Source: Escherichia phage NiC89. From it: DNA of 64,000 nt. The notes under the pieces are model-generated. The model was not told the DNA's origin, did no database searches, and worked only from the letters and a program-made list of their open reading frames with translations. Made by a program: the position numbers and the translations under genes. Shown one piece after another: positions 1 through 52,405 of the stretch (positions are counted from its first letter, which is position 1; each line of letters begins with the position of its first letter). The stretch is taken from the sequence record LC620505.1; one strand, 5' to 3'.

Positions 1-1923
1 ATGAGTTATATTCAAAGACTTACAACAGGTGAAGTAGAAATGAACGTTAACGGTTCATTTGAATCATCTGGTGTTACTGCTGGAAATAGAGGAGTTCACA
101 CAACGGGCGAAATTTCATCTGGGGCTGTGAATGCGCTTCGTATTTGGAATGCAGATTATGGAGCTATTTTTAGACGTTCAGAAGGTAGTCTTCATATTAT
201 TCCAACTGCTTACGGTGAAGGTAAACACGGCGATATAGGTCCACTTCGCCCGTTTAGTATGGCTTTAGATACCGGTAAAGTTACTATTCCAGATTTACAA
301 TCAAGTTACAATACGTTTGCTGCTAACGGTTATATTAAATTTGTTGGTCATGGAGCGGGTGCTGGCGGTTATGACATTCAATATGCTCAAGCGGCTCCTA
401 TTTTCCAGGAAATTGATGATGATGCTGTAAGCAAATATTATCCTATTGTTAAACAGAAGTTTCTAAACGGTAAATCCGTTTGGTCTTTAGGTACTGAAAT
501 TAATTCAGGTACATTCGTTATTCATCATCTGAAAGAAGATGGTTCACAAGGCCATACGTCTCGTTTTAATCAAGACGGTACTGTTAACTTCCCAGATAAC
601 GTTCAGGTCGGCGGCGGTGAAGCTACTATTGCTCGCAATGGTAATATCTGGTCTGATATCTGGAAAACGTTTACTTCTGCCGGTGATACTACAAATATTC
701 GCGATGCTATTGCGACTCGTGTTTCGAAAGAAGGCGACACGATGACCGGCAAGTTGATTATTAGAAGAGATTCTGACGCTATTAACTTAGCTGCGCCTTC
801 AGCAACTGATGCAAGTTACCTTCTTTCTACTGGCGGTGGAGAAAATCAATGGTATATTGGTAAAGGCGGCGCTGATAATACCGTATCATTCTACAACTAT
901 AAAACCAATGGGGCTGTGCAAATTAACTCTATTGGTGAAATCGCGCTGATTCCACAAGGTGCTGCAACATTTAACTTTAACCGCGATCGCCTTCATATAA
1001 ACGGTACACAATGGACCGCACACCAGGCCGGCGATTGGGGAAATCAATGGCGCCAGGAAGCTCCTATATTTGTGGATTTTGGTAGTGTCGGCAATGACTG
1101 CTATTATCCTATTATTAAAGGAAAATCTGTTATTACGAATGAAGGATACACATCTGGTGTTGATTTTGGTATGCGACGCATTACTAATAACTGGGCGCAA
1201 GGTATTATTCGTGTAGGTAACCAGGAAAATGGTTCTGATCCGCAAGCTGTCTTCGAATTCCACCATAATGGAAACATGTACGTTCCTGACATGGTTAATG
1301 CTGGAGTAAGATTATCGGCTGGCGGTGGTGACCCGGTGTGGACAGGCGCATGTGTTGTTATTGGTGATAATGATACTGGATTAGTTCATGGTGGTGATGG
1401 GCGAATTAACATGGTTGCAAATGGAGTGCATATTGCTTCATGGTCGTCCGCTTACTATCTCCATGAAGGTCTTTGGGATACCACCGGTGCTTTGTGGACT
1501 GAACAAGGAAGAGCTATTATTTCTTTTGGTCATTTAGTCCAACAAAGCGATGCCTATTCCACATTTGTCCGCGATGTTTATGTCCGTTCTGATATTCGTG
1601 TTAAAAAAGACCTTGTTAAATTTGAAAATGCTTCTGAGAAGCTTTCTAAAATTAACGGTTACACTTATATGCAGAAGCGAGGCCTAGATGAAGAAGGTAA
1701 TCAGAAATGGGAACCTAACGCCGGTTTGATAGCTCAAGAAGTTCAAGCTATTTTGCCTGAATTAGTTGAAGGTGACCCTGATGGCGAAGCTTTACTTCGT
1801 TTGAACTATAACGGTGTAATTGGTTTAAATACAGCTGCAATCAATGAGCATACTGCAGAAATTGCGGAACTTAAATCAGAAATTGAAGAACTTAAAGCAT
1901 TAGTTAAATCATTGTTAAAATAA
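1..1923 (+). CDS. 37: Long tail fiber distal subunit gp37, C-terminal part; gene continues upstream of the window
   Basis: 640-aa ORF running from window edge; C-terminal ~105 aa carry an intramolecular-chaperone type motif ([10 protein letters not shown] ... [11 protein letters not shown] ... coiled-coil tail); followed directly by gene 38. The ATG at position 1 is probably not the true start. Confidence 0.75.
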
Positions 1924-1926
1924 TAA

Positions 1927-1944
1927 GAGGGGCTTCGGCCCCTT
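1927..1944 (+). terminator. GC-rich hairpin with TTCG loop (gaggggc-ttcg-gcccctt) after gene 37 stop
   Basis: Perfect stem with UUCG tetraloop on the sense strand, 4 nt after the TAA; overlaps the gene 38 ribosome-binding region. Confidence 0.45.
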
Positions 1945-1954
1945 GGAGGTTTAT

Positions 1955-2731
1955 ATGGCAGTAACAGGACCGTGGGTAGGATCATCTGCAGTAGTTAATA
2001 CAGGACAAAATTGGATGGTTGGCGCGGCCCAACGATTAAGAATGGGTGCTCCATTTTGGATGAGTAATATGATAGGTCGATCTGTTGAAGTAATTCATAC
2101 ACTTGGAGCAGATCATAACTTCAATGGTCAATGGTTCCGAGATAGATGTTTTGAGGCAGGTAGTGCACCTATAGTGTTTAATATCACTGGAGATTTAGTA
2201 TCATATTCTAAAGATGTTCCTTTATTCTTCATGTATGGAGATACACCGAATGAATATGTTCAGTTGAATATACACGGCGTAACGATGTATGGACGTGGCG
2301 GTAATGGTGGTAGCAATAGTCCTGGTTCAGCTGGGGGCCATTGTATTCAAAATGATATTGGTGGGAGACTAAGAATTAATAATGGTGGAGCTATTGCTGG
2401 AGGTGGCGGCGGTGGCGGCGGCGGATATTATTCTCCTTTTTCACAAATGAGATTGACTTTTGGAGGTGGCGGCGGGCGTCCGTTTGGCGCACCGGGCGGA
2501 TCTATTGATATGCAATCAGGAGCAACTGCTGGTACTATTTCTGCGCCAGGCGCAGGGTCTGTGAACGGTATCTATAGCGGCGGTGGCGGCGGCGAAGTTG
2601 GCTCCGCAGGAGGTAGATGTAATATTCGTGGTCAAGGATCTGAATACGATGGCGGAGCTGCTGGTTATGCCGTCATAGGGTCTACACCGACATGGCAAAA
2701 CGTTGGAGCAATATATGGTCCAAGAGTATAA
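1955..2731 (+). CDS. 38: gp38 receptor-recognising adhesin, T2-type, with glycine-rich motifs
   Basis: ORF track 1943..2731 (262 aa, TTG start); ATG at 1955 preceded by GGAGG. Four poly-Gly blocks ([38 protein letters not shown]) separating variable segments, as in T2-type gp38. Position after gene 37. Confidence 0.8.
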
Positions 2732-2761
2732 TTTGAATAAATATCCTTAAAAGGAGGGTCT

Positions 2762-3418
2762 ATGGCAGCACCTAGAATATCATTTTCGCCCTCTGATATT
2801 CTATTTGGTGTTCTAGATCGCTTGTTCAAAGATAACGCTACCGGGAAAGTTCTTGCTTCCCGGGTAGCTGTCGTAATTCTTTTGTTTATGATGGCGATTG
2901 TTTGGTATAGGGGAGATAGTTTCTTTGAGTACTATAAGCAATCAAAGTATGAAACATACAGTGAAATTATTGAAAAGGAAAGAAATGCACGCTTTGAATC
3001 TGTCGCCCTGGAACAACTCCAGATAGTTCACATATCATCTGAGGCAGACTTTAGTGCGGTGTATTCTTTCCGCCCTAAAAACTTAAACTATTTTGTCGAT
3101 ATTATAGCATATGAAGGAAAATTACCTTCAACAATAAGTGAAAAATCACTTGGAGGATATCCTGTTGATAAAACTATGGATGAATATGCAGTTCATTTAA
3201 ATGGACGTCATTATTATTCTGATTCAAAATTTGCTTTTTTACCAACTAAAAAGCCTACTCCCGAAATAAATTACATGTACAGTTGTCCATATTTTAATTT
3301 GGATAATATCTATGCTGGAACAATAACCATGTACTGGTATAGAAATGATCATATAAGTAATGACCGCCTTGAATCAATATGTGCTCAGGCGGCCAGAATA
3401 TTAGGAAGGGCTAAATAA
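2762..3418 (+). CDS. t: Holin T
   Basis: 218 aa, same length as T4 holin; N-terminal TM segment then large periplasmic domain; AAAAGGAGGG RBS; position after gene 38. Confidence 0.85.
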   Translation: MAAPRISFSPSDILFGVLDRLFKDNATGKVLASRVAVVILLFMMAIVWYRGDSFFEYYKQSKYETYSEIIEKERNARFESVALEQLQIVHISSEADFSAVYSFRPKNLNYFVDIIAYEGKLPSTISEKSLGGYPVDKTMDEYAVHLNGRHYYSDSKFAFLPTKKPTPEINYMYSCPYFNLDNIYAGTITMYWYRNDHISNDRLESICAQAARILGRAK

Positions 3419-3691
3419 TTATTTGTTTGTATACATTTCTAAATATCTATATACACCCTCAAAACCCTCGTTGAATTCGTCGATGAGGGTTTTCTTATCT
3501 TCTTGAGTTAATTCAGAAACAATTTTACGGAATGAATTCTGATTTAATTTTCTACCTTCATGCATTACTCCAATCTCATTCAGAAATGCAATAAAATTAG
3601 CACGATTCTCAACAATATCTTCTCTGGAAAATTTAATCAAAATAGACGCAACAGTAATAATTTCACGAACTGTATCAATATTTTTATTCAT
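3419..3691 (-). CDS. asiA: Anti-sigma70 factor AsiA
   Basis: 90 aa; sequence MNKNIDTVREIITVASILIKFSRED... matches remembered T4 AsiA; position between t and motA. Confidence 0.85.
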   Translation of the reverse strand: MNKNIDTVREIITVASILIKFSREDIVENRANFIAFLNEIGVMHEGRKLNQNSFRKIVSELTQEDKKTLIDEFNEGFEGVYRYLEMYTNK

Positions 3692-3703
3692 TAACTATAC
3701 CAC

Positions 3704-3856
3704 TCAATTAGTTGACTTTGTTATAATATCATCAGACACTTGATTTGTAAACTGGTCTGTGTTATTTTCTTCAAAAATTTTTTCTACGAATTCCTTGAAC
3801 GACTTACGTTCCTGAGCTACATTATGCTCGATTACTTTTTCAAGATTATGACTCAT
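3704..3856 (-). CDS. Hypothetical 50-aa protein (not in supplied ORF track)
   Basis: Hand-translated ORF MSHNLEKVIEHNVAQERKSF...; its ATG overlaps the stop of the upstream gene (ATGA). Confidence 0.35.
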   Translation of the reverse strand: MSHNLEKVIEHNVAQERKSFKEFVEKIFEENNTDQFTNQVSDDIITKSTN

Positions 3857-4131
3857 TCGAAATAATCTTCAATTTCATAATCATGGACATAAATCATTAT
3901 AGTTTTTAATACATCATCAATACTTTTTCCTGGAGCTGGAATTACGTAAAAATATCCTGCTTTTGAGAGGTCTTTATAAGTTCCAATCAAGAAATCATTA
4001 TTCTCAAGATGTAGTTCTTCAACTAATTCATTAACAATTGAGTGGTATAAATTTGGTAGAAACTTATATAGCTTTTCTAGAATATCAATTTTGATTGTGT
4101 ATTGAACCACAGACTGAGAATCAATAATCAT
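3853..4131 (-). CDS. arn: Putative Arn (anti-restriction, McrBC inhibitor) homologue
   Basis: 92 aa, same length as T4 Arn; acidic; position between asiA and motA. Identity rests on size and synteny only. Confidence 0.45.
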   Translation of the reverse strand: MIIDSQSVVQYTIKIDILEKLYKFLPNLYHSIVNELVEELHLENNDFLIGTYKDLSKAGYFYVIPAPGKSIDDVLKTIMIYVHDYEIEDYFE

Positions 4132-14081: not shown

Positions 14082-14111
14082 ATTATACCACATCCTTGTG
14101 GTAAAGTAAAC
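14082..14111 (-). promoter_or_regulatory. T4-type early promoter
   Basis: GTTTAC (14106-14111), 18-bp spacer, TGGTATAAT. Confidence 0.6.
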
Positions 14112-15931
14112 TACTGGCTCATCCATTCTTTACGAAGGTCAGCGTTATCTCCCATGAGCATTTCAAAAAGCTCTTTCCAGTTCTCAGGAAGTTTAACAAC
14201 ATCATATACTGGGTTTTGAATCATCTCACGATATTCAGATTTTTCCAAAGAGCCAAGTCCCTTAATATAACGGATGCTATGTTTAGGTAGAGCATCTTTG
14301 GCACTCTCATATTCAGCGACTGTATAAAACCATTCTTGTTTTTTACCGACCTGAGCGATGATTACAGGAGTTTTGACGAAACGAATTCTTCCTTGTTCAA
14401 ACAGTTCTGGCCAATTACTAAAAAATCCGAGCAGAGAAGGATAAATGCTTCCTAAACCATCATGGTCAGCATCGGTCATAATAGCAATATTATGATAATT
14501 CAAGTTTTCAGCTTTTTCACCAAGAACTAATCCAGTGATTGCGCAAATATCAAATAGTTCTTTGTTTTTAAGCATATCTGCATATGACATACCCCAACTG
14601 TTGAGAACTTTACCACGCAATGGATAACCACCGTGAAGTTCTTTATCACGAACATCAATAAGATATCCGATAGCCGAATCACCCTCAGTCAAGAAAAGAG
14701 TAGTGTCAGCATCTTTACCGCAAAGATTCGCTTTGATATGTTTATGAACCTTAGCTTTAGAAGCCTTTTTAGCTGCTTTAGTTTCTGCTGCTTTTTCTGC
14801 TGCTAATTTACGTGCTAAAGCAGCTTCAATAATCGGCATTAAAATTGCTTCATTATTTAGAATAGCGCGTGAAATCTTTTTAGCATCAAGTTGAATATGA
14901 CTACGAATTTCACCAAAAGGAGAAGTAAGTCGTTCTTTAGTTTGAGAATCAAATCGCATGTTTTTCATATCACGGACAAACATAACGATAGTCAAACATT
15001 CTTTGACACGCGCTTTAGTTACATCAATTTTGAACTTACGTTTGATTTGTGGAATAAGGTCTTCACAAATATCATCCATAACACAGTCAATGTGATGGCC
15101 ACCATTCTTAGTGTGAATGTTATTCACATAAGTTAATTGACGAAAACCATCAGGTGAACGACCAACCGCAATAGAACAATTTTCTTGTTCTTGAACAATA
15201 GCATGTTCATCATACTGCCGTGCATATTTCTTAAAATTGCCCTGAACCTTTTTACCATTAAAAGTAAATTGAATATCAGGATAAACAACAGCAAGTGTCT
15301 GAAGACGATCTAGTGTAATGTCAAGATAAACTTGGGACAGCTCATTAGTTTCAAATGACATAAAATCAGGAATGAAAGTAACACGAGTTCCTTTCCATTT
15401 TCCTGGAATAGTTTCCCATGATTTATTTTCCATGCCATTTGAACAACGAACTACAATATTATTTTGACCATCGCCAGTTTCACCGACAAACATCACAGAA
15501 AAAATGTTAGTTAAACTAGAACCAACACCATTCATACCACCGGTGACACGTTCTTTATCATCACCAAAGTTACCACCTGCTTTTGGAATAGTCCACGCAG
15601 CAACAGGACCAGGAATTTCTTCACCAGTAGGTGTTTTAACCATCGCTTGTGGAATACCGCGACCGTTATCTTCAACTGTCACCTGATTATTTTTAATGGT
15701 AACATTAATTTTATTTGCGAACTTAAATTTAGTACGAATACCTTCATCGACTGAGTTATCGATAATTTCATCAATAAGCTTAACAAGACCAGGTACATAC
15801 TGAACACTTTCCCATTTACCAAACAGAAAGCGCTCATGCATTTCATTAGCAGAAGAGCCAATGTACATGCCACTACGCTTTTTGATATGTTCAATATCGC
15901 TCAGAATTTTAATTTCATTCTTAATCATCAC
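14111..15931 (-). CDS. 39: DNA topoisomerase II large subunit gp39 (GyrB-like), unsplit
   Basis: 606 aa; N-terminal GyrB ATPase motifs; C-terminal ~160 aa correspond to what is a separate gene 60 in T4, read here in one frame with no bypass. Confidence 0.9.
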   Translation of the reverse strand: MMIKNEIKILSDIEHIKKRSGMYIGSSANEMHERFLFGKWESVQYVPGLVKLIDEIIDNSVDEGIRTKFKFANKINVTIKNNQVTVEDNGRGIPQAMVKTPTGEEIPGPVAAWTIPKAGGNFGDDKERVTGGMNGVGSSLTNIFSVMFVGETGDGQNNIVVRCSNGMENKSWETIPGKWKGTRVTFIPDFMSFETNELSQVYLDITLDRLQTLAVVYPDIQFTFNGKKVQGNFKKYARQYDEHAIVQEQENCSIAVGRSPDGFRQLTYVNNIHTKNGGHHIDCVMDDICEDLIPQIKRKFKIDVTKARVKECLTIVMFVRDMKNMRFDSQTKERLTSPFGEIRSHIQLDAKKISRAILNNEAILMPIIEAALARKLAAEKAAETKAAKKASKAKVHKHIKANLCGKDADTTLFLTEGDSAIGYLIDVRDKELHGGYPLRGKVLNSWGMSYADMLKNKELFDICAITGLVLGEKAENLNYHNIAIMTDADHDGLGSIYPSLLGFFSNWPELFEQGRIRFVKTPVIIAQVGKKQEWFYTVAEYESAKDALPKHSIRYIKGLGSLEKSEYREMIQNPVYDVVKLPENWKELFEMLMGDNADLRKEWMSQ

Positions 15932-26879: not shown

Positions 26880-27137
26880 TTAACCACCAATACCTGGAGT
26901 TGGCGTAACAGTCCAAAGACCTTCATTTGCAGTAATCCAATCAGCACGCTGATTTTCTTCATATACTGTTGAATATGCTGCTTTTTCTGAAGGAAATGTC
27001 TGATAATGAGCCCCAGAAATTTTGTGAACATCAGAATAAAGAGGGAAAGCTACAGAAATTTCTTTACCCTGAATTGTACCACCGTCAACTGCTTGGTCAA
27101 ATGTTTTAATATTAACATAACCGCGAGTACTAGCCAT
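26880..27137 (-). CDS. soc: Small outer capsid protein Soc
   Basis: 85 aa; sequence MASTRGYVNIKTF...ISVAFPLYSDVHKISGAHYQTFPSEKAAYSTVYEENQ matches remembered T4 Soc; late promoter upstream. Confidence 0.85.
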   Translation of the reverse strand: MASTRGYVNIKTFDQAVDGGTIQGKEISVAFPLYSDVHKISGAHYQTFPSEKAAYSTVYEENQRADWITANEGLWTVTPTPGIGG

Positions 27138-27153: not shown

Positions 27154-27363
27154 TTAAATTACATGATTATTTATAATAAATTCTCGCGGAACGTTAAAAT
27201 ATCCGATTTTAGTTAATATAACAACATCACCGTTAATAATTACCGGAGAATAATCTTCTGGAGCATTAAATTTCCAATGGGCTCTAATATTATATCCATC
27301 AGAACCAAATGCTCGAGTAGCCGGTCTCCCGGCTTTTTGCCACGCATAGAAATCAAATTTCAT
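27154..27363 (-). CDS. Hypothetical protein, 69 aa (soc.1-like by position)
   Basis: ORF. Confidence 0.45.
   Translation of the reverse strand: MKFDFYAWQKAGRPATRAFGSDGYNIRAHWKFNAPEDYSPVIINGDVVILTKIGYFNVPREFIINNHVI
27168..27175 (-). promoter_or_regulatory. Late promoter TATAAATA upstream of soc
   Basis: Exact TATAAATA on - strand ~31 nt before soc ATG. Confidence 0.5.
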
Positions 27364-27554
27364 TTTGAATGCTCTATAATTAATTTTAAAGCTTCTTCAC
27401 TGACAAAAATTTCGTCAGGACCTTCTATAACTTCAACCATACGAAGTTGATTAGTTAAGAGCTCACATACGAGCTCCTTGTTATAATCTTTAAATAGCTG
27501 GTCAATACGTTTCTTATGGGCTTTCTTAAGCTGACGCTTATTTAAACGAGCCAT
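27360..27554 (-). CDS. Hypothetical protein, 64 aa (soc.2-like by position)
   Basis: ORF. Confidence 0.45.
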   Translation of the reverse strand: MARLNKRQLKKAHKKRIDQLFKDYNKELVCELLTNQLRMVEVIEGPDEIFVSEEALKLIIEHSK

Positions 27555-28072
27555 TAATAACCTCGGTCTTGACGAGCGAAGTTTTCAGCATTTTTCAGGT
27601 AATAAAGTTTAAAGATTTCTTCAGCTGACATTCCAAGAGCAATAAATTTATTCATGAAAAAATGAAATTGGTCAATAAGTTCAAATTTAATTTCAAGCTG
27701 ATCTTCGGGAGATAAATCTTGAATTTTCTTGGATTGCATTTCAGAATAACGTTTCTTCCAAGGTTTCCATACAGCAGAAGCTTCTTTTTCGCCATTACTC
27801 ATACCACCAAGAGAAGTATATAACTCGCGGGTTTCATCTGCGATATAATCGTCTTGGTTTCGCAACCAAGCAAGAACTTCTCCTGCAGTTTCAAGTGAAT
27901 CAGGATGACGATTTGTTTCTGGTTTATCATTAGCCAAACGAATCTGTAAATGCCGCTGCATATTAAGCATAACCTGCAGTGGGTCAATATTGTGCATAAT
28001 ATTCTCAGCATATGCACGATTTGCTTTATCAACACCTTCGATCAAATGAGCACATTCATTAAAGTAAGCCAT
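27554..28072 (-). CDS. 56: dCTP pyrophosphatase gp56 (MazG-like)
   Basis: Track ORF 203 aa; start taken at MAYFNE (172 aa; T4 gp56 171 aa) with AGGA RBS. Confidence 0.7.
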   Translation of the reverse strand: MAYFNECAHLIEGVDKANRAYAENIMHNIDPLQVMLNMQRHLQIRLANDKPETNRHPDSLETAGEVLAWLRNQDDYIADETRELYTSLGGMSNGEKEASAVWKPWKKRYSEMQSKKIQDLSPEDQLEIKFELIDQFHFFMNKFIALGMSAEEIFKLYYLKNAENFARQDRGY

Positions 28073-28096
28073 TATTTTTCCTTTCAATTCATGGGT

Positions 28097-28121
28097 TAGT
28101 AGATTAATTATACAATAAATA
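28097..28121 (-). promoter_or_regulatory. Middle promoter upstream of gene 56
   Basis: On - strand TTGCTTTA (MotA box), 11-bp spacer, TATAAT. Confidence 0.45.
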
Positions 28122-28143
28122 TATAAAGCAATAAGGAGGACAT

Positions 28144-28344
28144 ATGGTACAAAAATTAATGGCACTTGTTAATGCCATAAAAGGTAATAAAAAACGTATA
28201 GCTTTTACTATTTCTGCTATGGTAGGAATTTTACTCTGGAACTTTATTCTATCACCTATTGCAATTGCACATGGTATTAATATTCCAGTAGTTACTCTTG
28301 ATACATTTGTAGATTTAGCATTTGCTTTAGTTGGGTTAATTTAA
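28144..28344 (+). CDS. Candidate small membrane protein, 66 aa, convergent with gene 61
   Basis: TAAGGAGG then ATG; two hydrophobic segments; occupies the 56-61 interval where T4 carries 69/dam. Could be a chance ORF in AT-rich DNA. Confidence 0.3.
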   Translation: MVQKLMALVNAIKGNKKRIAFTISAMVGILLWNFILSPIAIAHGINIPVVTLDTFVDLAFALVGLI

Positions 28345-33183: not shown

Positions 33184-34339
33184 TTAACTGCTCGAGGTCA
33201 GTTTCTAAATCAGCAGCTGATTTACTTTTACTTTCTGGGGATTTAAATTTTTCAACCTTTGAGTTAATCAATTCATCAACTTCAGCTTCAACAATTTCAT
33301 TACTATCAATAGCACCTAACTGATAAGCACGCTTAATAGCATCTCGGAATGGTTGATGCTTAAATAAAGGACCCCAGAATGTAGTGCAGTTGGTATCTTT
33401 TGCACGCCAAGATTTTTCTTCGCGAATCATCTCGCCGGTTTCTTCGTCAAGAAATTCACGAGCATACCAGCCATTTTTAGGTTTTACTACAAATCCTAAT
33501 TCTAGAGCCATATCTAACAATCCAGAATAAGGATCGATACCACCGTCAAATTTAACATCAATAAAGAATTTACTTTTTTCTTTAACGGTACGAGATTTTT
33601 CTACATTTAGAACAAATTGATACCCCTGAAGATCAGAACCATCTTTAATCTGACGTTTACCGATAATGAATACAGTATCAGCCGAATACATTACGCCTGT
33701 ACCACCTGTCATCACGGTTTTACTAAACATTTCAATTGTTTCAATTGTATGGTTAACCGCAACACATGGAATGTTTTTAATACTAAAATAAGGAGTAACA
33801 ATACGGAATAATGACTTCAGTGATTTAGCACGAGTCATATCTGCCACAGATTTTTCATTCAAGGCATCTTCAGTTTCTTTCTTAGAAGCCATATTACCGA
33901 TTGAGTCGATGAATACAATAACTTTTTCACCGCGTTCAATAGCTTCAAGCTGGTTCACCATATCAATTTTCAGCTGTTCAACTGACTGAATCGGCGTATG
34001 AATTACTCGTTCCGGGTCAACTCCCATGGATCGCAAATAAGCTGGAGTAATACCAAATTCGCTATCATAGAATAGACAAACCGCGTCAGGATATTTGTTC
34101 AAATATGCCGCAACCATAGTCAAAGACATATTTGATTTAAAGTGTTTAGAAGGCCCTGCGAAAATAGTTAAACCAGACTGCATACCGCCATCAATCGCAC
34201 CAGAAATAGCAATATTAAGCATTGGGATTTTTGTACGGATTACATCCTTTTCATTAAAGAATTTAGATGTAGTCAGTTCAGCAGTCATTTTAGAAGTGGA
34301 AGCTTTAATCAAACGGGATTTTAAATCTGCAATAGACAT
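33158..34339 (-). CDS. uvsX: UvsX recombinase (RecA-like)
   Basis: 393 aa; RecA-fold P-loop region; acidic C-terminus. Confidence 0.9.
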   Translation of the reverse strand: MSIADLKSRLIKASTSKMTAELTTSKFFNEKDVIRTKIPMLNIAISGAIDGGMQSGLTIFAGPSKHFKSNMSLTMVAAYLNKYPDAVCLFYDSEFGITPAYLRSMGVDPERVIHTPIQSVEQLKIDMVNQLEAIERGEKVIVFIDSIGNMASKKETEDALNEKSVADMTRAKSLKSLFRIVTPYFSIKNIPCVAVNHTIETIEMFSKTVMTGGTGVMYSADTVFIIGKRQIKDGSDLQGYQFVLNVEKSRTVKEKSKFFIDVKFDGGIDPYSGLLDMALELGFVVKPKNGWYAREFLDEETGEMIREEKSWRAKDTNCTTFWGPLFKHQPFRDAIKRAYQLGAIDSNEIVEAEVDELINSKVEKFKSPESKSKSAADLETDLEQLSDMEEFNE

Positions 34340-34352
34340 TCATTTTTTCCAT

Positions 34353-34377
34353 AGGCATCATTATATTTTCCTCACTG
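34353..34377 (-). promoter_or_regulatory. Candidate middle promoter upstream of uvsX
   Basis: On - strand TGCCTAA (MotA-box-like, 5/7), 11-bp spacer, TATAAT. Weak match. Confidence 0.3.
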
Positions 34378-34416
34378 GTTAAAGATAGAGTAATTATAAC
34401 ACAATAAATTTAGGCA

Positions 34417-35265
34417 TTAATCAACTGCTATTGGATGAATAGCATTAAACTTATGAAATGCTTCTGATTTTTCTTTACGTGAAACACACATGCGAAGAAC
34501 CTTTAATGGCTCGTCTTCTTCACCCAACGATTTTCGTTTTTCAATATTAGAAGTTTTCCAACGAGCTTGCTCTGGAAACTCTCTATTGATTTGCTCAAGC
34601 GCTCTATTATGTTTAGAATTACTACGAATTGAACTGCACCCGCCAGGAGCTTGTGCTTTTCCAGATACAACCAGATATTTGAACAAGGCCAAATGCGGAT
34701 AACCTTGATTAATTAAATTGAGAAATGCATACATATCTTCGCACAAATCAATTTTTCCATACCCAATTTGTTCTGTCGTAAGTTTTCCAAGGTCATACCA
34801 TGTATTCGTGAATCCGTATGAATTTTCACGATAATTACCCCAAGATGAAGTAATTTTAAAAATTGGTAGACGAGCATGACCATGATAATACCCACAATCC
34901 ATGGCATCCTCAACATATTGAATCAATTCATAGAACTGTTCACGAGTCAATTGATTGACTTTATCTACGCAACGACGATCATCTCTTTTTCGCATTGAAC
35001 TCATACGAATAGTAGTATCATCGTCAATCATCCAGATTCGTTGACCTGCATACATATCAGTAATTGCTTTACGAGTACCGGCAATTCCGTTTACATCATC
35101 AGGAATAGTTATAATTTTAGCTCTAGACCCATAGGCATCATAATAAGCTTTTTCTTCATGTTCACGCACTACAATATGAGGTTCATAATCAGTCGGAAAC
35201 ATATCAAGGGCAGAAACTGCCCCGACACGCTGATAACTTGGAATTACGAATTGAATCATTTCCAC
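34417..35265 (-). CDS. GT-A (DxD) glycosyltransferase in the beta-gt slot; candidate beta-glucosyl-HMC-alpha-glucosyltransferase
   Basis: 282 aa with IWMIDDDTTI motif; lies between uvsX and gene 42 where T4 has the 351-aa beta-gt. Confidence 0.5.
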   Translation of the reverse strand: MEMIQFVIPSYQRVGAVSALDMFPTDYEPHIVVREHEEKAYYDAYGSRAKIITIPDDVNGIAGTRKAITDMYAGQRIWMIDDDTTIRMSSMRKRDDRRCVDKVNQLTREQFYELIQYVEDAMDCGYYHGHARLPIFKITSSWGNYRENSYGFTNTWYDLGKLTTEQIGYGKIDLCEDMYAFLNLINQGYPHLALFKYLVVSGKAQAPGGCSSIRSNSKHNRALEQINREFPEQARWKTSNIEKRKSLGEEDEPLKVLRMCVSRKEKSEAFHKFNAIHPIAVD

Positions 35266-35996
35266 TCACCTTTATAGTCTTTTTTCACAATATGAGTTTC
35301 GCCAGTATTCCACCAATGATCAACCAAGTAAAAATGACGAGAATATACATGAAGACTTCCGACATTCCATATAATAGAACCTGCTTTATACTGACGAGTT
35401 GAATCGCCGGCATTCAAATCAGATACTAATTTATCTAATACGTATTTTTGCCATGCATAATCATTACGGAATCCGAAGACCACGTCATTTGAGCGCATGC
35501 TTACTACTGCATTAACTTTCTTATCACGAATCAGGTACTGTACTGTATTAGTACACATGAAATCTGACATACCATCTTTATTGTAGTCAAATTGCATGGA
35601 TGGACGAGTATAAATCATGATACCGCGTCGAGAATCAGGATTTTGACCAAGTTCAGCTAAACACATATCATACTGGGCATAGTTATCTTCTGACCAAATA
35701 GCCCAACCATAATTCGAGTTAATTTCACCTTTAGAAGATGCTACCTGCTGCCAAATCTTTGGTGTTTCGCCTGGAATATCTTTAACAAACAAGCTCTTAG
35801 ATTTATACCATTCAAGTTCACGCTGAATGTATTCATCATTAAGAGCGCCAAAAATAAACGGTTCATCTGCTACAAATGATGCGCCAATAATTTCAATAGT
35901 TTTAACACCAGTTTTATCGACTACGAAATCTTTTTCTTTTAATGCAAGCCCCAAATGAAGACGGATTTCTTCAACTGTCATAGAGTCACTAATCAT
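35256..35996 (-). CDS. 42: dCMP hydroxymethylase gp42
   Basis: 246 aa, same length as T4 gp42; thymidylate-synthase-like fold motifs. Confidence 0.9.
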   Translation of the reverse strand: MISDSMTVEEIRLHLGLALKEKDFVVDKTGVKTIEIIGASFVADEPFIFGALNDEYIQRELEWYKSKSLFVKDIPGETPKIWQQVASSKGEINSNYGWAIWSEDNYAQYDMCLAELGQNPDSRRGIMIYTRPSMQFDYNKDGMSDFMCTNTVQYLIRDKKVNAVVSMRSNDVVFGFRNDYAWQKYVLDKLVSDLNAGDSTRQYKAGSIIWNVGSLHVYSRHFYLVDHWWNTGETHIVKKDYKGEWK

Positions 35997-43545: not shown

Positions 43546-45228
43546 TTAAACCATTATAGTAAATCGACCAACTTTCTTCATTTGAAGATGCTGACCGTAT
43601 GCTTGCGGGTCATGGTCTCTATGTGAAATAACAAAAACATTAGTATTTTTTAAACTATCTAAAATAGTTGAAATAGCTTTTACACCTTCAACGTCGGTCG
43701 CTGAATCAAAAACTTCATCAAGAATTAGTGTGTTTATTTTAACACCTGAAACTTTTTCAGCAATATCACGCCAAGTAAATAAAAGAGCAATATCAATTCG
43801 TGCTTTTTCACCTTGACTGAATGAAGCATAACTAAAATCTTCACGACCACGTGATTTAATTGTCTCATTAAATTCTTCATCTAATGTAAACACATAATCC
43901 GCTTCCATTATTTTAAGATAATGGTTAATCCGCTTATTAAATAATGGAATGTACTTTTTAATAATAGCACCTTTAATACCAGAATCTTTGAGCATATCAG
44001 TCAAAATTCCTCGGTGGTATTTTTCCATTACTAAATTAGTTTTTGTCTTAACAATTTTATCAAGTTCTTCTTGAAGCAGTGCTATTTCATCAGCATGGTC
44101 AATAAACTCAGAAGATGCTTTTTCTATAGCCGCTTTAACCTTTTTAGCTTTATCTACCGTCGTGATTAGAGATTGCTTTTTATTGCGAATATCATTTGCC
44201 AACGACTGCTGGGTTTTAATATTATCTCGGTATTCATCAACAAGAACTTTTAAATTATCACGATGTGTTGAAAGCTGTTCAAACGAATGCGTGCATTCAG
44301 AAACTTTATCTTTAATTTTAGAAACAACTTTATCACCGGAACTTAATTGTGACAAACAGGTTGGACATAATCCACCTTCGTGATACATATTAATGACTTT
44401 ATTATACGAGTCAATTTTTGATTTAATTAAAACTGCTTCTTGACCGATTTTATTAAATGCATCAGTCGGGTCTTCATCTAAAACAATATTAACTAATCTT
44501 TCATTAGCTTCTTCTATTTCCGATTTTAGCGTTCTAGCTTCTTTTGCCAAATCATCATACATATTTTGAAGACGGGTAAGGTTGTCACCTGTTAATTTTT
44601 TCTGGCGTTCAACGTTATCATTATATATTTTAATTTGTTGGATAATACTATCTTTTTTAACATCAAGCACTTGGTTTTGTGAATTTAATTCACGTATTAG
44701 TGCTTTATTAAGCTTATCCATTTCAGCTAATGTTCCTACCTCAAGCAGGTCTTCCACAAGCTTTCTTCGCGCAGGGGTCGACAAACCCATGAAAGGGGTA
44801 TACCCTGCTGTACCAAGGACAACAATCTGCTTAAAACTGGCATATGACATTCCGATAAGCTGTTCAAATTCTGCTTGGAAATCTTTACTGCTGGCAGATT
44901 CATTAAGACGTGTACCGTTAACGGTGATTTCGAAAACGTTTGGTTTTTGTCCTCTTTTGATATAGTACTTTTTCTCATCATATTCCATCCACAGTTCAAC
45001 TAAAAGTTCTTTCTTATTTGTGCTGTTTATTAATTGACCTTTCTTTACATCACGAAATGGCTTGCCAAAAAGCCCAAATGTGATGGCTTCTAACATAGTA
45101 GACTTACCACCGCCATTTCGTCCAGTAATAAGAGTTTTTTGAACCTTATCTAATTGAATGTCAATAGGATTTCCACCTACTGACATTATATTTTGATACC
45201 TAACTCGGTTTAGTTTAAAATTTTTCAC
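43546..45228 (-). CDS. 46: Recombination nuclease subunit gp46 (Rad50/SbcC-like)
   Basis: 560 aa, same length as T4 gp46; Walker A GRNGGGKST, coiled-coil with CPTC hook, signature/D-loop at C-terminus. Confidence 0.9.
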   Translation of the reverse strand: MKNFKLNRVRYQNIMSVGGNPIDIQLDKVQKTLITGRNGGGKSTMLEAITFGLFGKPFRDVKKGQLINSTNKKELLVELWMEYDEKKYYIKRGQKPNVFEITVNGTRLNESASSKDFQAEFEQLIGMSYASFKQIVVLGTAGYTPFMGLSTPARRKLVEDLLEVGTLAEMDKLNKALIRELNSQNQVLDVKKDSIIQQIKIYNDNVERQKKLTGDNLTRLQNMYDDLAKEARTLKSEIEEANERLVNIVLDEDPTDAFNKIGQEAVLIKSKIDSYNKVINMYHEGGLCPTCLSQLSSGDKVVSKIKDKVSECTHSFEQLSTHRDNLKVLVDEYRDNIKTQQSLANDIRNKKQSLITTVDKAKKVKAAIEKASSEFIDHADEIALLQEELDKIVKTKTNLVMEKYHRGILTDMLKDSGIKGAIIKKYIPLFNKRINHYLKIMEADYVFTLDEEFNETIKSRGREDFSYASFSQGEKARIDIALLFTWRDIAEKVSGVKINTLILDEVFDSATDVEGVKAISTILDSLKNTNVFVISHRDHDPQAYGQHLQMKKVGRFTIMV

Positions 45229-45488
45229 AAAAGATTCCTTTTAATGTATCTTTTAGACCATTCTATCATATCATCATAATCTAAAAAGTATTCATCAAAT
45301 TCAACCATGCAAACAACACCTTGTGCTGTTTTTGATGTAATATAAATTATTCCAACATATCTGGAATCTTCTTCAGTATAATCAATATTTGCTATGAATT
45401 CATCATTAATGTCAAATGTCGAAAACTTCACAGTATGCATCCTTAATACAAGATACAGCCATATCTCGTAATGATTTAGGTGTGTCAT
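45225..45488 (-). CDS. Hypothetical protein (46.1-like)
   Basis: 87-aa ORF. Confidence 0.4.
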   Translation of the reverse strand: MTHLNHYEIWLYLVLRMHTVKFSTFDINDEFIANIDYTEEDSRYVGIIYITSKTAQGVVCMVEFDEYFLDYDDMIEWSKRYIKRNLL

Positions 45489-45675
45489 TATCTAAAATGT
45501 TGAAGTTAAAAGATACAGCCCAGTCAGTGCAGACCGTGACCTTTTTAATACAATTATCTTCAACCTCTAGCGGTTCAAACCAATATTCAATAATTTCTTT
45601 ATGCCCAATATCATCTTTTACTTCGCATTCAAAATGCTGACTCATCATAACATTTTTAAATTCATCAAAAGTCAT
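45412..45675 (-). CDS. Hypothetical protein (46.2-like)
   Basis: 87-aa ORF overlapping neighbour. Confidence 0.4.
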   Translation of the reverse strand: MTFDEFKNVMMSQHFECEVKDDIGHKEIIEYWFEPLEVEDNCIKKVTVCTDWAVSFNFNILDNDTPKSLRDMAVSCIKDAYCEVFDI

Positions 45676-46691
45676 TGTGTTGCCTCTACATATAACTGAT
45701 TTGCATATTGAATAAGTGCTTCACGGTCAGAATCAGTGATGTCTGGAATTGCATTAATGTATTCTTCCATCAACGTCTGAAGCGATTGAACTTCAACTTC
45801 TTCACTATCATCTGACCCGACAGAGTTATCAATCTTTGACACAACTCGTAATGAATGCACAACTTTTTCTAGTTCAGATTCGAACTTCGTCAGATTTTTG
45901 TCTACTTCAGTTACTATAACACGTACTGATAGATTTGTAAAATCTTTATAGTCAATTTTTCCTTTAAATGGATAATGAATTCTACGATGCCAGGTAGTGT
46001 TGTTTGGAATAAATTCCATTCGTTCTGTTTCTGTATCAAACATCCAGAACCCACGAGGGTCATTCTCGTCACCTGCAGTTAGTGTCCATGGTGTCCCAAT
46101 ATACTTGACGTTTGCAGCCTCAGAAATAGTATGGAAGTGACCAGACCACACTTCTTTATAAGTCTTAAGGAAATCAGGTTCAAGACCATGAGATTTCATT
46201 CCTTTATAAAAATAAAATCCGTTCAGTTCCCAGTGACCAACACAAAAAGAAGCAGATGAAGTTTTGATATGCTCAAGAATTTCACCAGTATTTTCTTCAC
46301 ACATCCAAGGAATTAAATCAATCAAACATCCATCAAAATCTACTGTAGTAGGCTTATCATACACTTTAACATTAGGATATTTAGCCAAAAGCTCAGTAGA
46401 GGCATTTGGAGTTAAAGTATTTTTAAAGTGCATATCATGGTTTCCTACAACAGTATGTAGGGTAATACCAGCATCATCAAGCATTTGAACTATTTCACGA
46501 GCAAACTCCATAGTTTTATGCGTGATTGCTTTTCGCACATCAAAAATATCGCCGTATTGAATCCAGGTAGTAATTCCATTTTTCTTAGAATATTCTATTG
46601 CTTGTTTAATTCCATCCAACTGAATGGATTGAACCCACTCATCATCGGCTTTAACGCCTAAATGCCAATCACCTAAATTTAAAATTTTCAT
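45672..46691 (-). CDS. 47: Recombination nuclease subunit gp47 (Mre11/SbcD-like)
   Basis: 339 aa, same length as T4 gp47; phosphoesterase motifs (LGDWH, GNHD). Confidence 0.9.
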   Translation of the reverse strand: MKILNLGDWHLGVKADDEWVQSIQLDGIKQAIEYSKKNGITTWIQYGDIFDVRKAITHKTMEFAREIVQMLDDAGITLHTVVGNHDMHFKNTLTPNASTELLAKYPNVKVYDKPTTVDFDGCLIDLIPWMCEENTGEILEHIKTSSASFCVGHWELNGFYFYKGMKSHGLEPDFLKTYKEVWSGHFHTISEAANVKYIGTPWTLTAGDENDPRGFWMFDTETERMEFIPNNTTWHRRIHYPFKGKIDYKDFTNLSVRVIVTEVDKNLTKFESELEKVVHSLRVVSKIDNSVGSDDSEEVEVQSLQTLMEEYINAIPDITDSDREALIQYANQLYVEATQ

Positions 46692-46851: not shown

Positions 46852-46869
46852 AAAGGGCCGAAGCCCTTT
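46852..46869 (-). terminator. UUCG-loop hairpin (aaagggc-cgaa-gcccttt) at alpha-gt stop
   Basis: 7-bp stem. Confidence 0.45.
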
Positions 46870-48070
46870 ATTTTGTAATAATGTCAAACTGTTCTTTAAA
46901 GCAGAAGCTTGAATCTTGGTGCTGATACAAAAATTCATAAGCTTTTTCGCGTTCACGGTCATAAAGAGCTCGGTCAGATGACAGTTCTTTAATACGTTCA
47001 AATGTTGATTCCATGTCATTTTCATCAAACCAAACGATACCGCTATCATGAGAAATTAATGGAGTGTTATCAACACGGAATTTTAAATTTTCGCCAGTAG
47101 ATTTCCAAAATACCGGAATTGTTCCACATGCACCAAGCTCGAGATGAGTATATTCTAAAGAACGTTGTAGATATTTTTTATCCAACTTACTCAACTGATA
47201 ACCAAAACCGGATTTACTCATACGTTCAAGCATTTCGCTATTTACATAACGGTCAAGAATTTGCGTTGGCAAATTAGGAGCAATTTTAATTTGGTCTACT
47301 TGATGAAGACGATAATACTCGTATGGAATTCCTTTTTCTTTAATAGGAATGAACGCTGGAGAACGTTCCAGACCTTCCATAATAGTACTTAGTCCTGCAG
47401 GTTTAAGATGTTTTTCATGAAAATCAAACATCTGATAAAAACCTTTCCATGTAGTCGTGCGACCAATCCAACGGTTGATATTCATGTTAATTTCAGAAAC
47501 ATCTTTCCAGTAGGTTGACCGAACCTTCGCAATATCCATAGGAGGCTGAAAGTTATATACTGTCGGTGCTTCTTCAATATCATCAAACAGAGAAACAGTT
47601 TCTGGATACCATTCTTTCATCAGAACTTTATTAAAATCACCATTATCAGAATGGCTAAAAATAACATCAGCTCGACGAACAGTTTCTTCTAATCCCAAAT
47701 TTCGACGCAAAGAAAGAGAAGAATGGTCATGTTGATAAACTACAACACGAACAGAAGGTTTAATGTTATCAATAATTTTTTTATAGTTATTAATAGAGTC
47801 TTCTTCAACCGAAGTAGCAGGAACTGAATTGATAATTAGAATATCACAATCATTTACCAGCTTAAGTGTTTTATCGTATTCTTTTGCCAATAAAACCGGA
47901 ATTGAAAATGATTTATAATCATGCGCACAATTACGAGTAAATGATTTATCTTTAGCATAAACCAAAGTTACTTCATGACCATTTTTAATAAACCAATCAC
48001 GTTGCTCAAGAGAAAATTTAGTTACACCACAACCTTCAAGACCTCGAGCCATAAAAATACATACTTTCAT
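46868..48070 (-). CDS. a-gt: DNA alpha-glucosyltransferase
   Basis: 400 aa, same length as T4 alpha-gt; position after gene 47. Confidence 0.8.
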   Translation of the reverse strand: MKVCIFMARGLEGCGVTKFSLEQRDWFIKNGHEVTLVYAKDKSFTRNCAHDYKSFSIPVLLAKEYDKTLKLVNDCDILIINSVPATSVEEDSINNYKKIIDNIKPSVRVVVYQHDHSSLSLRRNLGLEETVRRADVIFSHSDNGDFNKVLMKEWYPETVSLFDDIEEAPTVYNFQPPMDIAKVRSTYWKDVSEINMNINRWIGRTTTWKGFYQMFDFHEKHLKPAGLSTIMEGLERSPAFIPIKEKGIPYEYYRLHQVDQIKIAPNLPTQILDRYVNSEMLERMSKSGFGYQLSKLDKKYLQRSLEYTHLELGACGTIPVFWKSTGENLKFRVDNTPLISHDSGIVWFDENDMESTFERIKELSSDRALYDREREKAYEFLYQHQDSSFCFKEQFDIITK

Positions 48071-48094
48071 TTAATATCCTCTTTGTTTTGGTTT

Positions 48095-51466: not shown

Positions 51467-51790
51467 TTAGTCTTCTATGATATCTCTATCATATCCAAGT
51501 GAAATGAGAGTTTCTTTGAATTGTTTAATGTTCTTTTGTCTAGAATCATTAATGAAAATGACAGGATACCGAATATTAAGAGATGTGAATCCGGCGCGTT
51601 TGGCAAGAGATACAATCAATGGGCGATCGTACTCAATCTTACCATTATTAGTAAGAACTTTATAGAAAGTAAAAGGAGCATTGAGCTCCTTTAGAAGTTT
51701 TGTAACTGATTGACATCCAGGACAACGACCTACTTCATCTGGAATTCCATAGACTTCAATCTTATTCTTTAAGTTCAAGTTTTGTTCCAC
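51467..51790 (-). CDS. nrdH: Glutaredoxin-like protein (NrdH-like), start uncertain
   Basis: Domain KIEVYGIPDEVGRCPGCQ...; no in-frame ATG near the domain start; in-frame GTG at 51788-51790 and TTG at 51776-51778; the only ATG (51919) adds a 50-aa hydrophobic extension overlapping the upstream ORF. Confidence 0.5.
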   Translation of the reverse strand: MEQNLNLKNKIEVYGIPDEVGRCPGCQSVTKLLKELNAPFTFYKVLTNNGKIEYDRPLIVSLAKRAGFTSLNIRYPVIFINDSRQKNIKQFKETLISLGYDRDIIED

Positions 51791-52073
51791 GAGAAATAAT
51801 TCCTTGGTAAGCCCAATAAGGAGGATTAACAGAATCCTCACCAGAGTTTTCTTCAGGAAAATAAACCTGGATAACGAAGCCGGATTCATCAAAGGTGAAA
51901 TAAGTAGTAGGCAGTTCACCTAACAAATCGGCACGAGCGTTGATTTCTTCGAGGTCTTGTTCACGTCCAGCCCAGAAGCTTGGGTTCAGACTACATTCAT
52001 AGAAATAATAGTCATTACCGAACATATCAAAACCATTCCAACTCTCTACTACATACCGCTCAAAACTAATCAT
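51762..52073 (-). CDS. Hypothetical protein, 103 aa
   Basis: ORF whose stop overlaps the glutaredoxin-like frame. Confidence 0.45.
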   Translation of the reverse strand: MISFERYVVESWNGFDMFGNDYYFYECSLNPSFWAGREQDLEEINARADLLGELPTTYFTFDESGFVIQVYFPEENSGEDSVNPPYWAYQGIISRGTKLELKE

Positions 52074-52075
52074 AA

Positions 52076-52291
52076 TTAAGCCTTTTTATCAAGAACAGCA
52101 TTCAGCTTGTTAGTAATTTTATCCAGACGCTCATTGAACTCACTAGAAGATAAGCCCTTTTCTGGAGAAATTAAACTAATAACGAAAAATACAACAATAA
52201 AAGGAATAAGGAAAATAGCTCCAACTGCCATAAACAAAAAGAACGTTACAGTTGTAAGAAAATCAGCTAAACCTTTACGAAATTTATACAT
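52076..52291 (-). CDS. Small membrane protein, 71 aa
   Basis: One TM segment; ORF. Confidence 0.45.
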   Translation of the reverse strand: MYKFRKGLADFLTTVTFFLFMAVGAIFLIPFIVVFFVISLISPEKGLSSSEFNERLDKITNKLNAVLDKKA

Positions 52292-52405
52292 ATTTACCCT
52301 TAATTAATTAACCAAGCATTGATAAGCACTAAACTATATTGCGAATAAAATTCTGGACCAAAATGAAAAATCATATCATTTATAGTATCCATAATGTAAT
52401 TCAAT

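Follow-up and report, generated by a model that had tools for sequence, protein, structure and literature searches.

The first kilobases of the analysed window (64,000 nucleotides of Escherichia phage NiC89, LC620505.1) raise the question of whether gene 38, lying between gene 37 and gene t, encodes an assembly chaperone of the T4 type or a receptor-recognising adhesin of the T2 type, and which host receptor the fibre tip would bind. The analysis showed that the locus is, with high confidence, the distal-tip module of a T2/T6-type Tequatrovirus long tail fibre, with a gp37 chaperone predicted to be autocleaving, a gp38 adhesin, Tsx as the likely receptor and a mosaic origin. What the first-pass annotation had described was all present at the positions given and well beyond chance, with some details to correct. 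The features assigned were as follows.

1-1923, plus strand: gene 37 (distal subunit of the long tail fibre), 3' part with the last 640 codons and the stop, 5' end beyond the window edge
1573-1587, plus strand: DVYVR (residues 525-529 of the fragment), the strand predicted to end mature gp37, from V-Y-x-R conservation
1588-1920, plus strand: C-terminal intramolecular chaperone domain (Peptidase_S74/ICA), S530-K640, 111 aa, predicted to be self-cleaving, from PF13884, 6F45_A, profile matches and motif conservation
1840-1920, plus strand: C-terminal amphipathic heptad helix I614-K640, aligned with its counterparts in S16 gp37 and MYRF
1927-1944, plus strand: GC-rich hairpin with a UUCG tetraloop in the intergenic space, after the stop of gene 37 and ahead of the ribosome-binding site of gene 38
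1955-2731, plus strand: gene 38, 258-aa T2/T6-type receptor-recognising adhesin, ATG 1955, TAA 2729-2731, Shine-Dalgarno GGAGG 1945-1949
1955-2074, plus strand: gp38 N-terminal attachment domain, residues 1-40, with Trp prongs W7/W20/W35, from the Gp38_N match
2075-2290, plus strand: N-terminal part of the gp38 beta-helix body, residues 41-112, 71/72 identical to PP01 and aligned to the 9V85 receptor-binding-domain construct
2291-2674, plus strand: gp38 specificity (polyglycine-sandwich) domain, from the segment map
2675-2728, plus strand: conserved gp38 C-terminal segment, back to beta-helix, with P-x-W-Q-N-V-G-x-I-Y-G-x-R-V invariant in 5/5 aligned adhesins
2762-3418, plus strand: gene t (holin), Phage_holin_T Pfam E=5.4e-117, outside the host-range module

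The window begins within gene 37. The start of the RB27 homologue lies 1,392 nt upstream of the match and its product has 1,104 aa; the ATG at nt 1 codes for a Met inside the protein, and the full-length gp37 numbering was taken from RB27, with approximately 464 N-terminal residues outside the window. An exact-protein contig look-up for the 5' part of the gene returned one 6-kb Logan contig, likewise starting within gene 37. Window positions 1-3420 showed 96.4% nucleotide identity to RB27, with patches of 83-92% in the gp37 shaft at nt 961-1440 by sliding identity. The Pfam matches of gp37 to Gp34_trimer and gp37_trimer were weak and slightly under their cutoffs. Comparison with T4 gp37 showed 39% identity to residues 570-743, restricted to the shaft, and no match of the C-terminus to the T4 receptor-binding tip. 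Antisense ORFs within gene 37 (e.g. 886-1266, minus strand, 126 aa) had no support and were set aside as by-products of the coding strand.

For gene 38, the first-pass annotation had proposed a 262-aa adhesin. The adhesin was retained but the length was corrected to 258 aa, counted from the ATG at 1955, 5 nt past the GGAGG. The longer figure is a mechanical ORF opened at a TTG at 1943, inside the intergenic hairpin, and that start is wrong. A length of 258 aa is also the annotated length of gp38 in RB27, G28 and ESH35 and in BCT70082.1, the exact GenBank entry for this protein from Escherichia phage NiC89, where it is labelled 'hypothetical protein'. A full-text literature search on phage NiC89 produced nothing relevant. 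Folding of 1915-1965 showed a 7-bp stem (1927-1933/1938-1944) with -14.1 kcal/mol including flanks; its stability was not significant against shuffles (z = -1.6), and the hairpin was not called as a terminator since the plus (coding) strand has no T-run. Sigma-70-like promoters in 1500-3800 were fewer than in shuffles (4 matches against 8.0), the exact T4 late-promoter octamer TATAAATA was absent in 1-3500, and the whole window gave no hit in Rfam and tRNA scans. Read by eye, AATAAATA at 2736-2743 is a 7/8 match to the octamer, 18 nt upstream of t. Gene t anchored the synteny 37-38-t-asiA, an order common to RB27, T6, T2, PP01 and T4.

The gp38 sequence covered two Pfam families from end to end: GP38 (PF05268) with 238.1 bits against a cutoff of 25 (E=1.3e-70, profile 1-218/218), and Gp38_N (PF21721) with 75.6 bits against a cutoff of 25 (E=3e-21, profile 1-40/40) on residues 1-40. 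The structure of PP01 gp38 (9V85) matched residues 37-258 (E=7e-81) and that of S16 gp38 (6F45_D) matched residues 1-255 (E=4e-52). The predicted fold, a polyglycine-II sandwich adhesin, can be taken as settled by these matches to solved structures. W7, W20 and W35 of the attachment domain were invariant in RB27, T6, T2 and PP01 and aligned with W7/W20/W36 of S16; the insertion of the three Trp prongs into the gp37 tip is described in PMC6851490.

The C-terminus of gp37 had been read as a domain of the self-cleaving intramolecular chaperone type, and this family membership was upheld. Residues 530-589 matched Peptidase_S74 (PF13884) with E=5.5e-13 and 49.4 bits against a cutoff of 22 (profile 1-57/58), and the tip-plus-IMC construct of S16 gp37 (PDB 6F45_A) matched the tip and chaperone domain with E=9e-44. 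A profile search with the 111-aa tail produced hits to the MYRF ICA domain 7DC3 (2.7e-9) and the phage tail fibre 8JOV (2e-8), while the GA-1 neck-appendage chaperone domain 3GUD scored 0.022, below significance. The SDIRVKKDL motif was located at fragment residues 530-538 (nt 1588-1614), 111 residues ahead of the stop, and the coiled-coil tail reads as a four-heptad C-terminal helix; by-eye reading of the last 27 residues gave I, I, I, V at heptad position a and H, L, L, L at d. In S-D-x-R-x-K, the S, D, R and K were invariant in five T-even gp37s, with RB27, PP01, T6 and T2 among the aligned sequences, and in S16, and S530 and K535 of SDIRVK occupy the Ser/Lys positions of the Peptidase_S74 family at the domain start. 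From what is known of the endosialidase domain, we take these two to be the catalytic residues. Directly 5' of the SD motif, V-Y-x-R was invariant in RB27, PP01, T6 and T2, and the context VY(V/I)R^SDxRxK was kept across divergent T-even gp37s that elsewhere in the aligned C-terminal stretch are 28-36% identical. The chaperone tail is 99-113 aa long in T2, T6, PP01 and RB27. Peptidase S74 domains of the endosialidase type, GA-1 3GUD and MYRF 7DC3 share the S-D-x-R-x-K start, a length of approximately 100-115 aa and a C-terminal helix, but are carried there on a tailspike, a neck appendage or a eukaryotic transcription factor, and here on a T-even long tail fibre.

The structural prototype is the (gp37)3-gp38 complex of S16 (PDB 6F45, Dunne et al. 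2018), in which a gp37 trimer forms the tip, the C-terminal chaperone cleaves itself off and a single gp38 copy bears the three Trp prongs and the polyglycine-II sandwich; it differs in its chaperone tail (approximately 57% identical), its HVS loops, its receptor (Salmonella OmpC) and its host. S16 gp37 loses 113 aa by autocleavage at DLNVS^SDRRIKK, and the fPS phages have DVYIR^SD, both at the position equivalent to DVYVR here (PMC7917993). A statement in PMC3157838, citing Drexler 1986, reports that T2 and T6 gp37 are proteolytically processed and then capped by gp38. By analogy with these homologues, gp37 would trimerise into the distal half-fibre, with the 111-residue chaperone (approximately S994-K1104 in RB27 numbering) nucleating the folding of the trimer. 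The domain is then predicted to cut itself off between R529 and S530 by Ser/Lys-mediated autoproteolysis, and the cleavage would expose a flat tip built of three DVYVR strands, the putative docking face for gp38. One gp38 copy per three gp37 chains would plug into this tip through W7, W20 and W35, leaving the distal loops HVS1-4 of the polyglycine-II sandwich to bind the receptor.

Two other readings of the gene pair were weighed against this scheme, which no feature of the sequence contradicts. In T4, gp38 is not in the virion and gp37 itself bears the receptor-binding tip (PMC6851490; PMC12892980); applied here, gp38 would be a gp37-folding assembly chaperone outside the virion and the gp37 C-terminus would bind the receptor directly. 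Name and position speak for it, as gene 38 lies between 37 and t in T4 as well, and the database records of some relatives, e.g. T6 MH550421 and HY03, still read 'distal long tail fiber assembly catalyst'. However, T4 gp38 (NP_049864.1) shares only its gene number and map position with the present protein and is unrelated in sequence: BLASTP detected no similarity, with a best E=1.9 over 12 residues, no tail-fibre-assembly Pfam family matched gp38, and the strong matches were to adhesin families and solved adhesin structures. The gp37 C-terminus carries a removable S74 domain in place of the T4 tip. The T4-type interpretation was rejected as having next to no chance of being right, and the initial view of gene 38 as a T2-type adhesin stood. 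Only slightly less remote is the reading in which the S74-like tail is a degenerate, non-cleaving remnant retained on the mature fibre. It is very improbable given that the Ser/Lys positions and the context around the predicted site are invariant across gp37s that otherwise diverge, that the Pfam match scores over double its gathering cutoff and that docking of S16 gp38 requires the chaperone domain to be removed (PMC7917993).

Within the adhesin, the earlier description of four polyglycine blocks framing variable segments was correct as to the framing but not as to the count. Following the definition of PMC3157838, five glycine-rich motifs (GRM) and four hypervariable segments (HVS) were mapped. 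Three long G runs (G9 at residues 149-157, G5 at 170-174 and G5 at 209-213) make up the five motifs together with GRGGNGG (113-119) and GGAAG (233-237). Residues 113-237 are 38% glycine, and the DNA G+C content is 0.56 across the glycine-rich region against approximately 0.30-0.40 nearby. The gp38 segment map was as follows.

2291-2311, plus strand: GRM1
2312-2341, plus strand: HVS1
2342-2380, plus strand: conserved rung
2381-2425, plus strand: GRM2
2426-2461, plus strand: HVS2
2462-2500, plus strand: GRM3
2501-2578, plus strand: HVS3
2579-2614, plus strand: GRM4
2615-2650, plus strand: HVS4
2651-2674, plus strand: GRM5

Alignment with T2, T6, PP01 and RB27 placed the variation among adhesins between the glycine motifs, as expected of segments that determine specificity, and the genetics in PMC3157838 and bioRxiv 10.64898/2026.04.02.716166 agrees. 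Compared with T2 and PP01, the GRMs were largely conserved and the HVSs largely non-identical. Over all four HVSs the identity was 60/60 to RB27 and 54/60 to T6, against 15/64 to T2 and 14/63 to PP01.

The closest relatives of the module were RB27 gp37/gp38 (YP_009102449.1 / YP_009102450.1) and vB_EcoM-G28, with the same gene order and lengths. The gp38 of RB27/G28 was 98.8% identical (255/258 to RB27), and RB27 matched at 100% of the residues in both the gp38 specificity domain and the 111-aa gp37 chaperone tail. The three differences to RB27 gp38 (V22S, G23S and A32T) are all in the attachment domain, and V22, G23 and A32 are private to the present phage. RB27 is not the nearest relative elsewhere, as the remaining genome is nearer other phages (MLF4, 96.6%). 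The other comparisons split the module in two. T6 gp38 (AXN58309.1), the prototype Tsx-binding adhesin, has the same GRM/HVS set, with all GRMs near-identical and HVS identities of 10/10, 11/12, 21/26 and 12/12 for HVS1 to HVS4, whereas T6 gp37 is only approximately 28-30% identical in the tip and chaperone tail and, by sliding identity, did not match at the DNA level in that part of the gene (1321-1920). Conversely, the aligned C-terminal stretch of PP01 gp37 (tip and chaperone tail) was 97% identical, with an identical 111-aa tail, whereas the HVSs of PP01 gp38 were unrelated; PP01 binds OmpC of O157 (PMC12892980). Sliding nucleotide identity was 82-98% to PP01 over nt 1441-2280, and over nt 2281-2730 it was 81-92% to T6 and 62-78% to PP01; the per-segment protein identities were consistent with this pattern. 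The module is a recombinational mosaic: it is PP01-like from the gp37 tip through the chaperone domain to gp38 residue 112 and T6-like in gp38 residues 113-258, and the junction falls around GRM1.

Since the specificity domain of gp38 is that of RB27 and carries a T6-like HVS set, Tsx, the nucleoside channel, is the most likely primary receptor. Recognition of Tsx in E. coli is reported for the adhesins of RB27 and other T6-like phages (PMC3157838), and plaquing of phages FL23 and FL44 requires tsx (PMC12032242); the gp38 of these two phages is 94% identical to the present one and falls in the same 90% cluster. Among adhesins of this family, a receptor can be gained or exchanged through one to three substitutions in HVS2 or HVS3: PST gained OmpA with 3 aa changed relative to T6 gp38, and RB68 switched from OmpF to OmpW through Q206L (PMC3157838; 10.64898/2026.04.02.716166). 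Given such switches, assigning a receptor by similarity is safe here only by virtue of a specificity domain that matches RB27 at every residue. Such substitutions also speak for an adhesin built as described whose primary receptor is not Tsx, or not Tsx alone, with OmpA or an LPS component as examples from PST and other T6-like variants. The HVSs of the present gp38 carry 6 differences from T6 and 4 from FL23, for which Tsx use is verified, and T6-like phages, RB27 among them, can plate on Yersinia, which has no Tsx, at low frequency (PMC3157838). Against this, residues 113-258 are fully identical to those of RB27, which is listed as a Tsx-recognising T6-like phage in E. coli, and T6 has the same HVS1 and HVS4 and an HVS2 that differs at one position, so that a receptor other than or additional to Tsx is considered unlikely. 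It is slightly more doubtful still that the combination of an RB27/T6-type specificity domain with a PP01-type gp37 tip, the private V22/G23/A32 and a gp37 shaft diverged from RB27 in patches gives a host range measurably unlike that of RB27. If it did, the route would be an altered seating or orientation of gp38, or contacts of the shaft with O-antigen or LPS, and the phage would be a natural test case for determinants of specificity outside the HVS loops.

With Tsx as the most likely receptor of a T2/T6-type tip, the module as a whole is already known, being textbook for T2/T6-type phages with an allele that is essentially that of RB27, and it makes no open question newly testable. For annotation, BCT70082.1 can confidently be renamed from 'hypothetical protein' to receptor-recognising adhesin of the T6/RB27 type, predicted to be specific for Tsx, and the entry for the gene 37 product can gain an autocleaving chaperone tail of the S74 type, with R^S as the predicted cleavage site. 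With an attachment module and a specificity module of different ancestry, the locus illustrates cleanly, and in nature, the modular exchange already documented for tail fibre tips. Knowledge of the module, although it matters little beyond annotation, is useful for choosing or engineering phages by receptor.

In the first part of the window (1-3418), genes 37, 38 and t lie on the + strand, the classical arrangement of T-even phages, and asiA comes next, on the minus strand:

1-1923, + strand, gene 37 (long tail fibre distal subunit), incomplete
1927-1944, GC-rich hairpin (UUCG tetraloop), lying after the stop of gene 37 and before the Shine-Dalgarno of gene 38
1945-1949, GGAGG upstream of gene 38
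1955-2731, + strand, gene 38 (receptor-recognising adhesin)
2736-2743, AATAAATA, candidate late promoter (7/8 of the consensus, found by reading the sequence), located between genes 38 and t, 18 nt before the start codon of the holin
2762-3418, + strand, gene t, holin (Pfam Phage_holin_T, E=5.4e-117)

The first-pass annotation required two corrections here. Gene 37 is cut by the window edge: in RB27, the closest annotated relative, the gene (1,104 aa) begins 1,392 nt before the position equivalent to window nt 1, so only the last 640 residues are present here and the opening ATG (nt 1) encodes an internal methionine. The 262 aa given for gp38 corresponded to a mechanical ORF call from TTG 1943, a spurious start inside the hairpin; the gene starts at ATG 1955, which gives 258 aa as in the RB27, G28 and ESH35 annotations and the exact GenBank match. 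This match (BCT70082.1, labelled 'hypothetical protein') and that of the holin (BCT70083.1) are consecutive accessions of Escherichia phage NiC89. The hairpin had no T-run 3' of it on the + strand, and its stability against shuffles was not significant (z = -1.6).

Homology searches placed gp38 with the T2-type adhesins, as had been proposed, with hits to Pfam GP38 (full-length profile, E=1.3e-70), Gp38_N (E=3e-21), the solved PP01 gp38 receptor-binding domain 9V85 (E=7e-81) and S16 gp38 (6F45_D, E=4e-52). The alternative of a T4-type chaperone was rejected, with BLASTP against T4 gp38 giving E=1.9. Residues W7, W20 and W35 were invariant in the aligned adhesins; in S16 the three tryptophans are 'prongs' that insert into gp37 (PMC6851490). 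Alignment with T2, T6, PP01 and RB27 showed the canonical specificity-domain layout of five glycine-rich motifs (GRMs) and four hypervariable segments (HVSs) (PMC3157838). Glycine blocks thus frame the variable segments as first described, but number five instead of four. Residues 113-237 are 38% glycine, which accounts for a local G+C peak of 0.56.

Domain map of the gp38 specificity domain and HVS identity to three reference adhesins
Element; residues; T6; T2; PP01
GRM1; 113-119
HVS1; 120-129; 10/10; 5/11; 3/12
Conserved rung; 130-142
GRM2; 143-157
HVS2; 158-169; 11/12; 0/12; 0/12
GRM3; 170-182
HVS3; 183-208; 21/26; 7/26; 8/27
GRM4; 209-220
HVS4; 221-232; 12/12; 3/15; 3/12
GRM5; 233-240
Conserved C-terminus; 241-258
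HVS total; 54/60; 15/64; 14/63

The chaperone-like domain proposed for the gp37 C-terminus was recovered by Pfam Peptidase_S74 ('chaperone of endosialidase') at fragment residues 530-589 (E=5.5e-13, >2x gathering score), and tip and tail together matched the Salmonella phage S16 gp37 construct (PDB 6F45, E=9e-44). A profile of the 111-residue tail built from the window phage, T6, T2 and S16 gave further matches to 7DC3 (2.7e-9), the intramolecular-chaperone auto-processing domain of MYRF, and to 8JOV (2e-8), also a phage tail fibre; the chaperone domain of the GA-1 neck appendage (3GUD) came up at 0.022, short of significance. The previously noted SDIRVKKDL motif was located at residues 530-538 (nt 1588-1614), 111 residues before the end. 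The gp37 proteins of RB27, PP01, T6 and T2 share an invariant S, D, R and K in S-D-x-R-x-K and an invariant V-Y-(V/I)-R just before it, while the remainder of the aligned C-terminal stretch showed only 28-36% identity in T6 and T2. The suggested coiled-coil tail was evident as a four-heptad a/d pattern in the last 27 residues (a = I,I,I,V; d = H,L,L,L). Likeness to T4 gp37 was confined to the shaft, where T4 residues 570-743 aligned at 39% identity; there was no resemblance to the T4 receptor-binding tip. In S16, the last 113 residues of gp37 are autocleaved at DLNVS^SDRRIKK, exposing the gp38 docking face (PMC7917993), and T2/T6 gp37 is reported to be proteolytically processed and then gp38-capped (PMC3157838, citing Drexler et al. 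1986). From this homology, cleavage is predicted between R529 and S530, and mature gp37 would then end ...FVRDVYVR. Overall, the gp37/gp38 architecture and mechanism are very probably as first described.

Sliding-window DNA identity and per-segment protein identity showed that the tip region comprises two modules of different ancestry, for attachment and specificity. The attachment module (gp37 tip, chaperone tail and gp38 residues 1-112) is PP01-like, with 97% identity to PP01 in the aligned gp37 C-terminal stretch and 71/72 residues identical across gp38 41-112; over 1321-1920, which covers the gp37 tip and chaperone, T6 gave no match at the DNA level. The specificity module (gp38 residues 113-258) is T6-like, the switch falling around GRM1. 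For PP01 gp38 to function on T2 gp37, its first 113 residues have to be exchanged (PMC12892980), which independently supports this module boundary.

RB27 gp38 differed at three positions (V22S, G23S and A32T), all in the attachment domain, and was identical over residues 41-258. RB27 is among the phages with T6-like adhesins, all recognising Tsx in E. coli (Trojet et al., PMC3157838). The gp38 proteins of FL23 and FL44, which lose plaquing on tsx deletion (PMC12032242), were 94% identical, in the same 90% cluster, with four differing HVS positions. Tsx is therefore likely to be the sole primary receptor, as judged from these relatives. A caveat is that in T6/T2-type adhesins receptor gain or switch is possible after one to three HVS changes (PMC3157838; 10.64898/2026.04.02.716166).

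A total of 614 phage records, nearly all Tequatrovirus, matched the tip region (1-3420). RB27 was closest (96.4% DNA identity; none higher among 50,697 phage records), then vB_EcoM-G28 (95.6%). For the adjoining 25 kb early region (3400-28000), MLF4 (96.6%) and AV122 (96.0%) were closest; such a regional change of nearest relative is usual T-even mosaicism. Other features were as follows:

14111-15931, minus strand, topoisomerase II large subunit, one unbroken 606-aa ORF (GyrB, HATPase, TOPRIM_C)
26880-27137, soc-like ORF
27168-27175, minus strand, single copy of the T4 late-promoter octamer TATAAATA, just upstream of the soc-like ORF
27154-27363 and 27360-27554, two small ORFs
27554 to about 28072, gene 56
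34417-35265, minus strand, 282-aa ORF within 34328-35273, matching the TET-associated glycosyltransferase family (PF20691, E=1.2e-9)
46868-48070, alpha-gt-sized ORF, 400 aa, in a block aligning with T4 through a-gt
52873-54690, minus strand, nrdD, unbroken 605-aa ORF

The single octamer in 64 kb compares with 10.5 +/- 3.2 expected from shuffles (≥1 copy in 100/100), a rarity consistent with late-promoter avoidance in an early-gene region. Compared with T4, the window lacks the segment that holds mobA, 60.1 and the 5' part of gene 60, a gene with a 50-nt translational bypass (T4 2806-3911), the I-TevII-bearing group I intron of nrdD (T4 about 44814-45850; junction 54152/54155) and mobB (clean junction at 48061-48086). 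The two small ORFs stand in place of segF, the soc to gene 61 interval (27154-28340) is about 1 kb against 2.1 kb in T4, and no dam methyltransferase gene was found between 56 and 61. The 282-aa protein replaces the T4 segA and beta-glucosyltransferase segment, and hydroxymethylcytosine glucosylation looks T2/T6-type rather than T4-type. Taken together with a shortened nrdG/mobC region (51767-52856), the mobB, mobA, I-TevII, segA and segF differences indicate that this stretch lacks most of the mobile endonuclease genes of T4.

The mosaic is the already described T-even 'lock-and-key' pattern, with the gp37 C-terminus and gp38 N-terminus co-inherited and the specificity domain exchanged (PMC3157838). 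By sequence comparison, the gp38 tip module is a near-identical copy of an already known, characterised allele. The system is among the best-studied in phage host recognition and has been covered by crystallography, receptor genetics and even predictive modelling.
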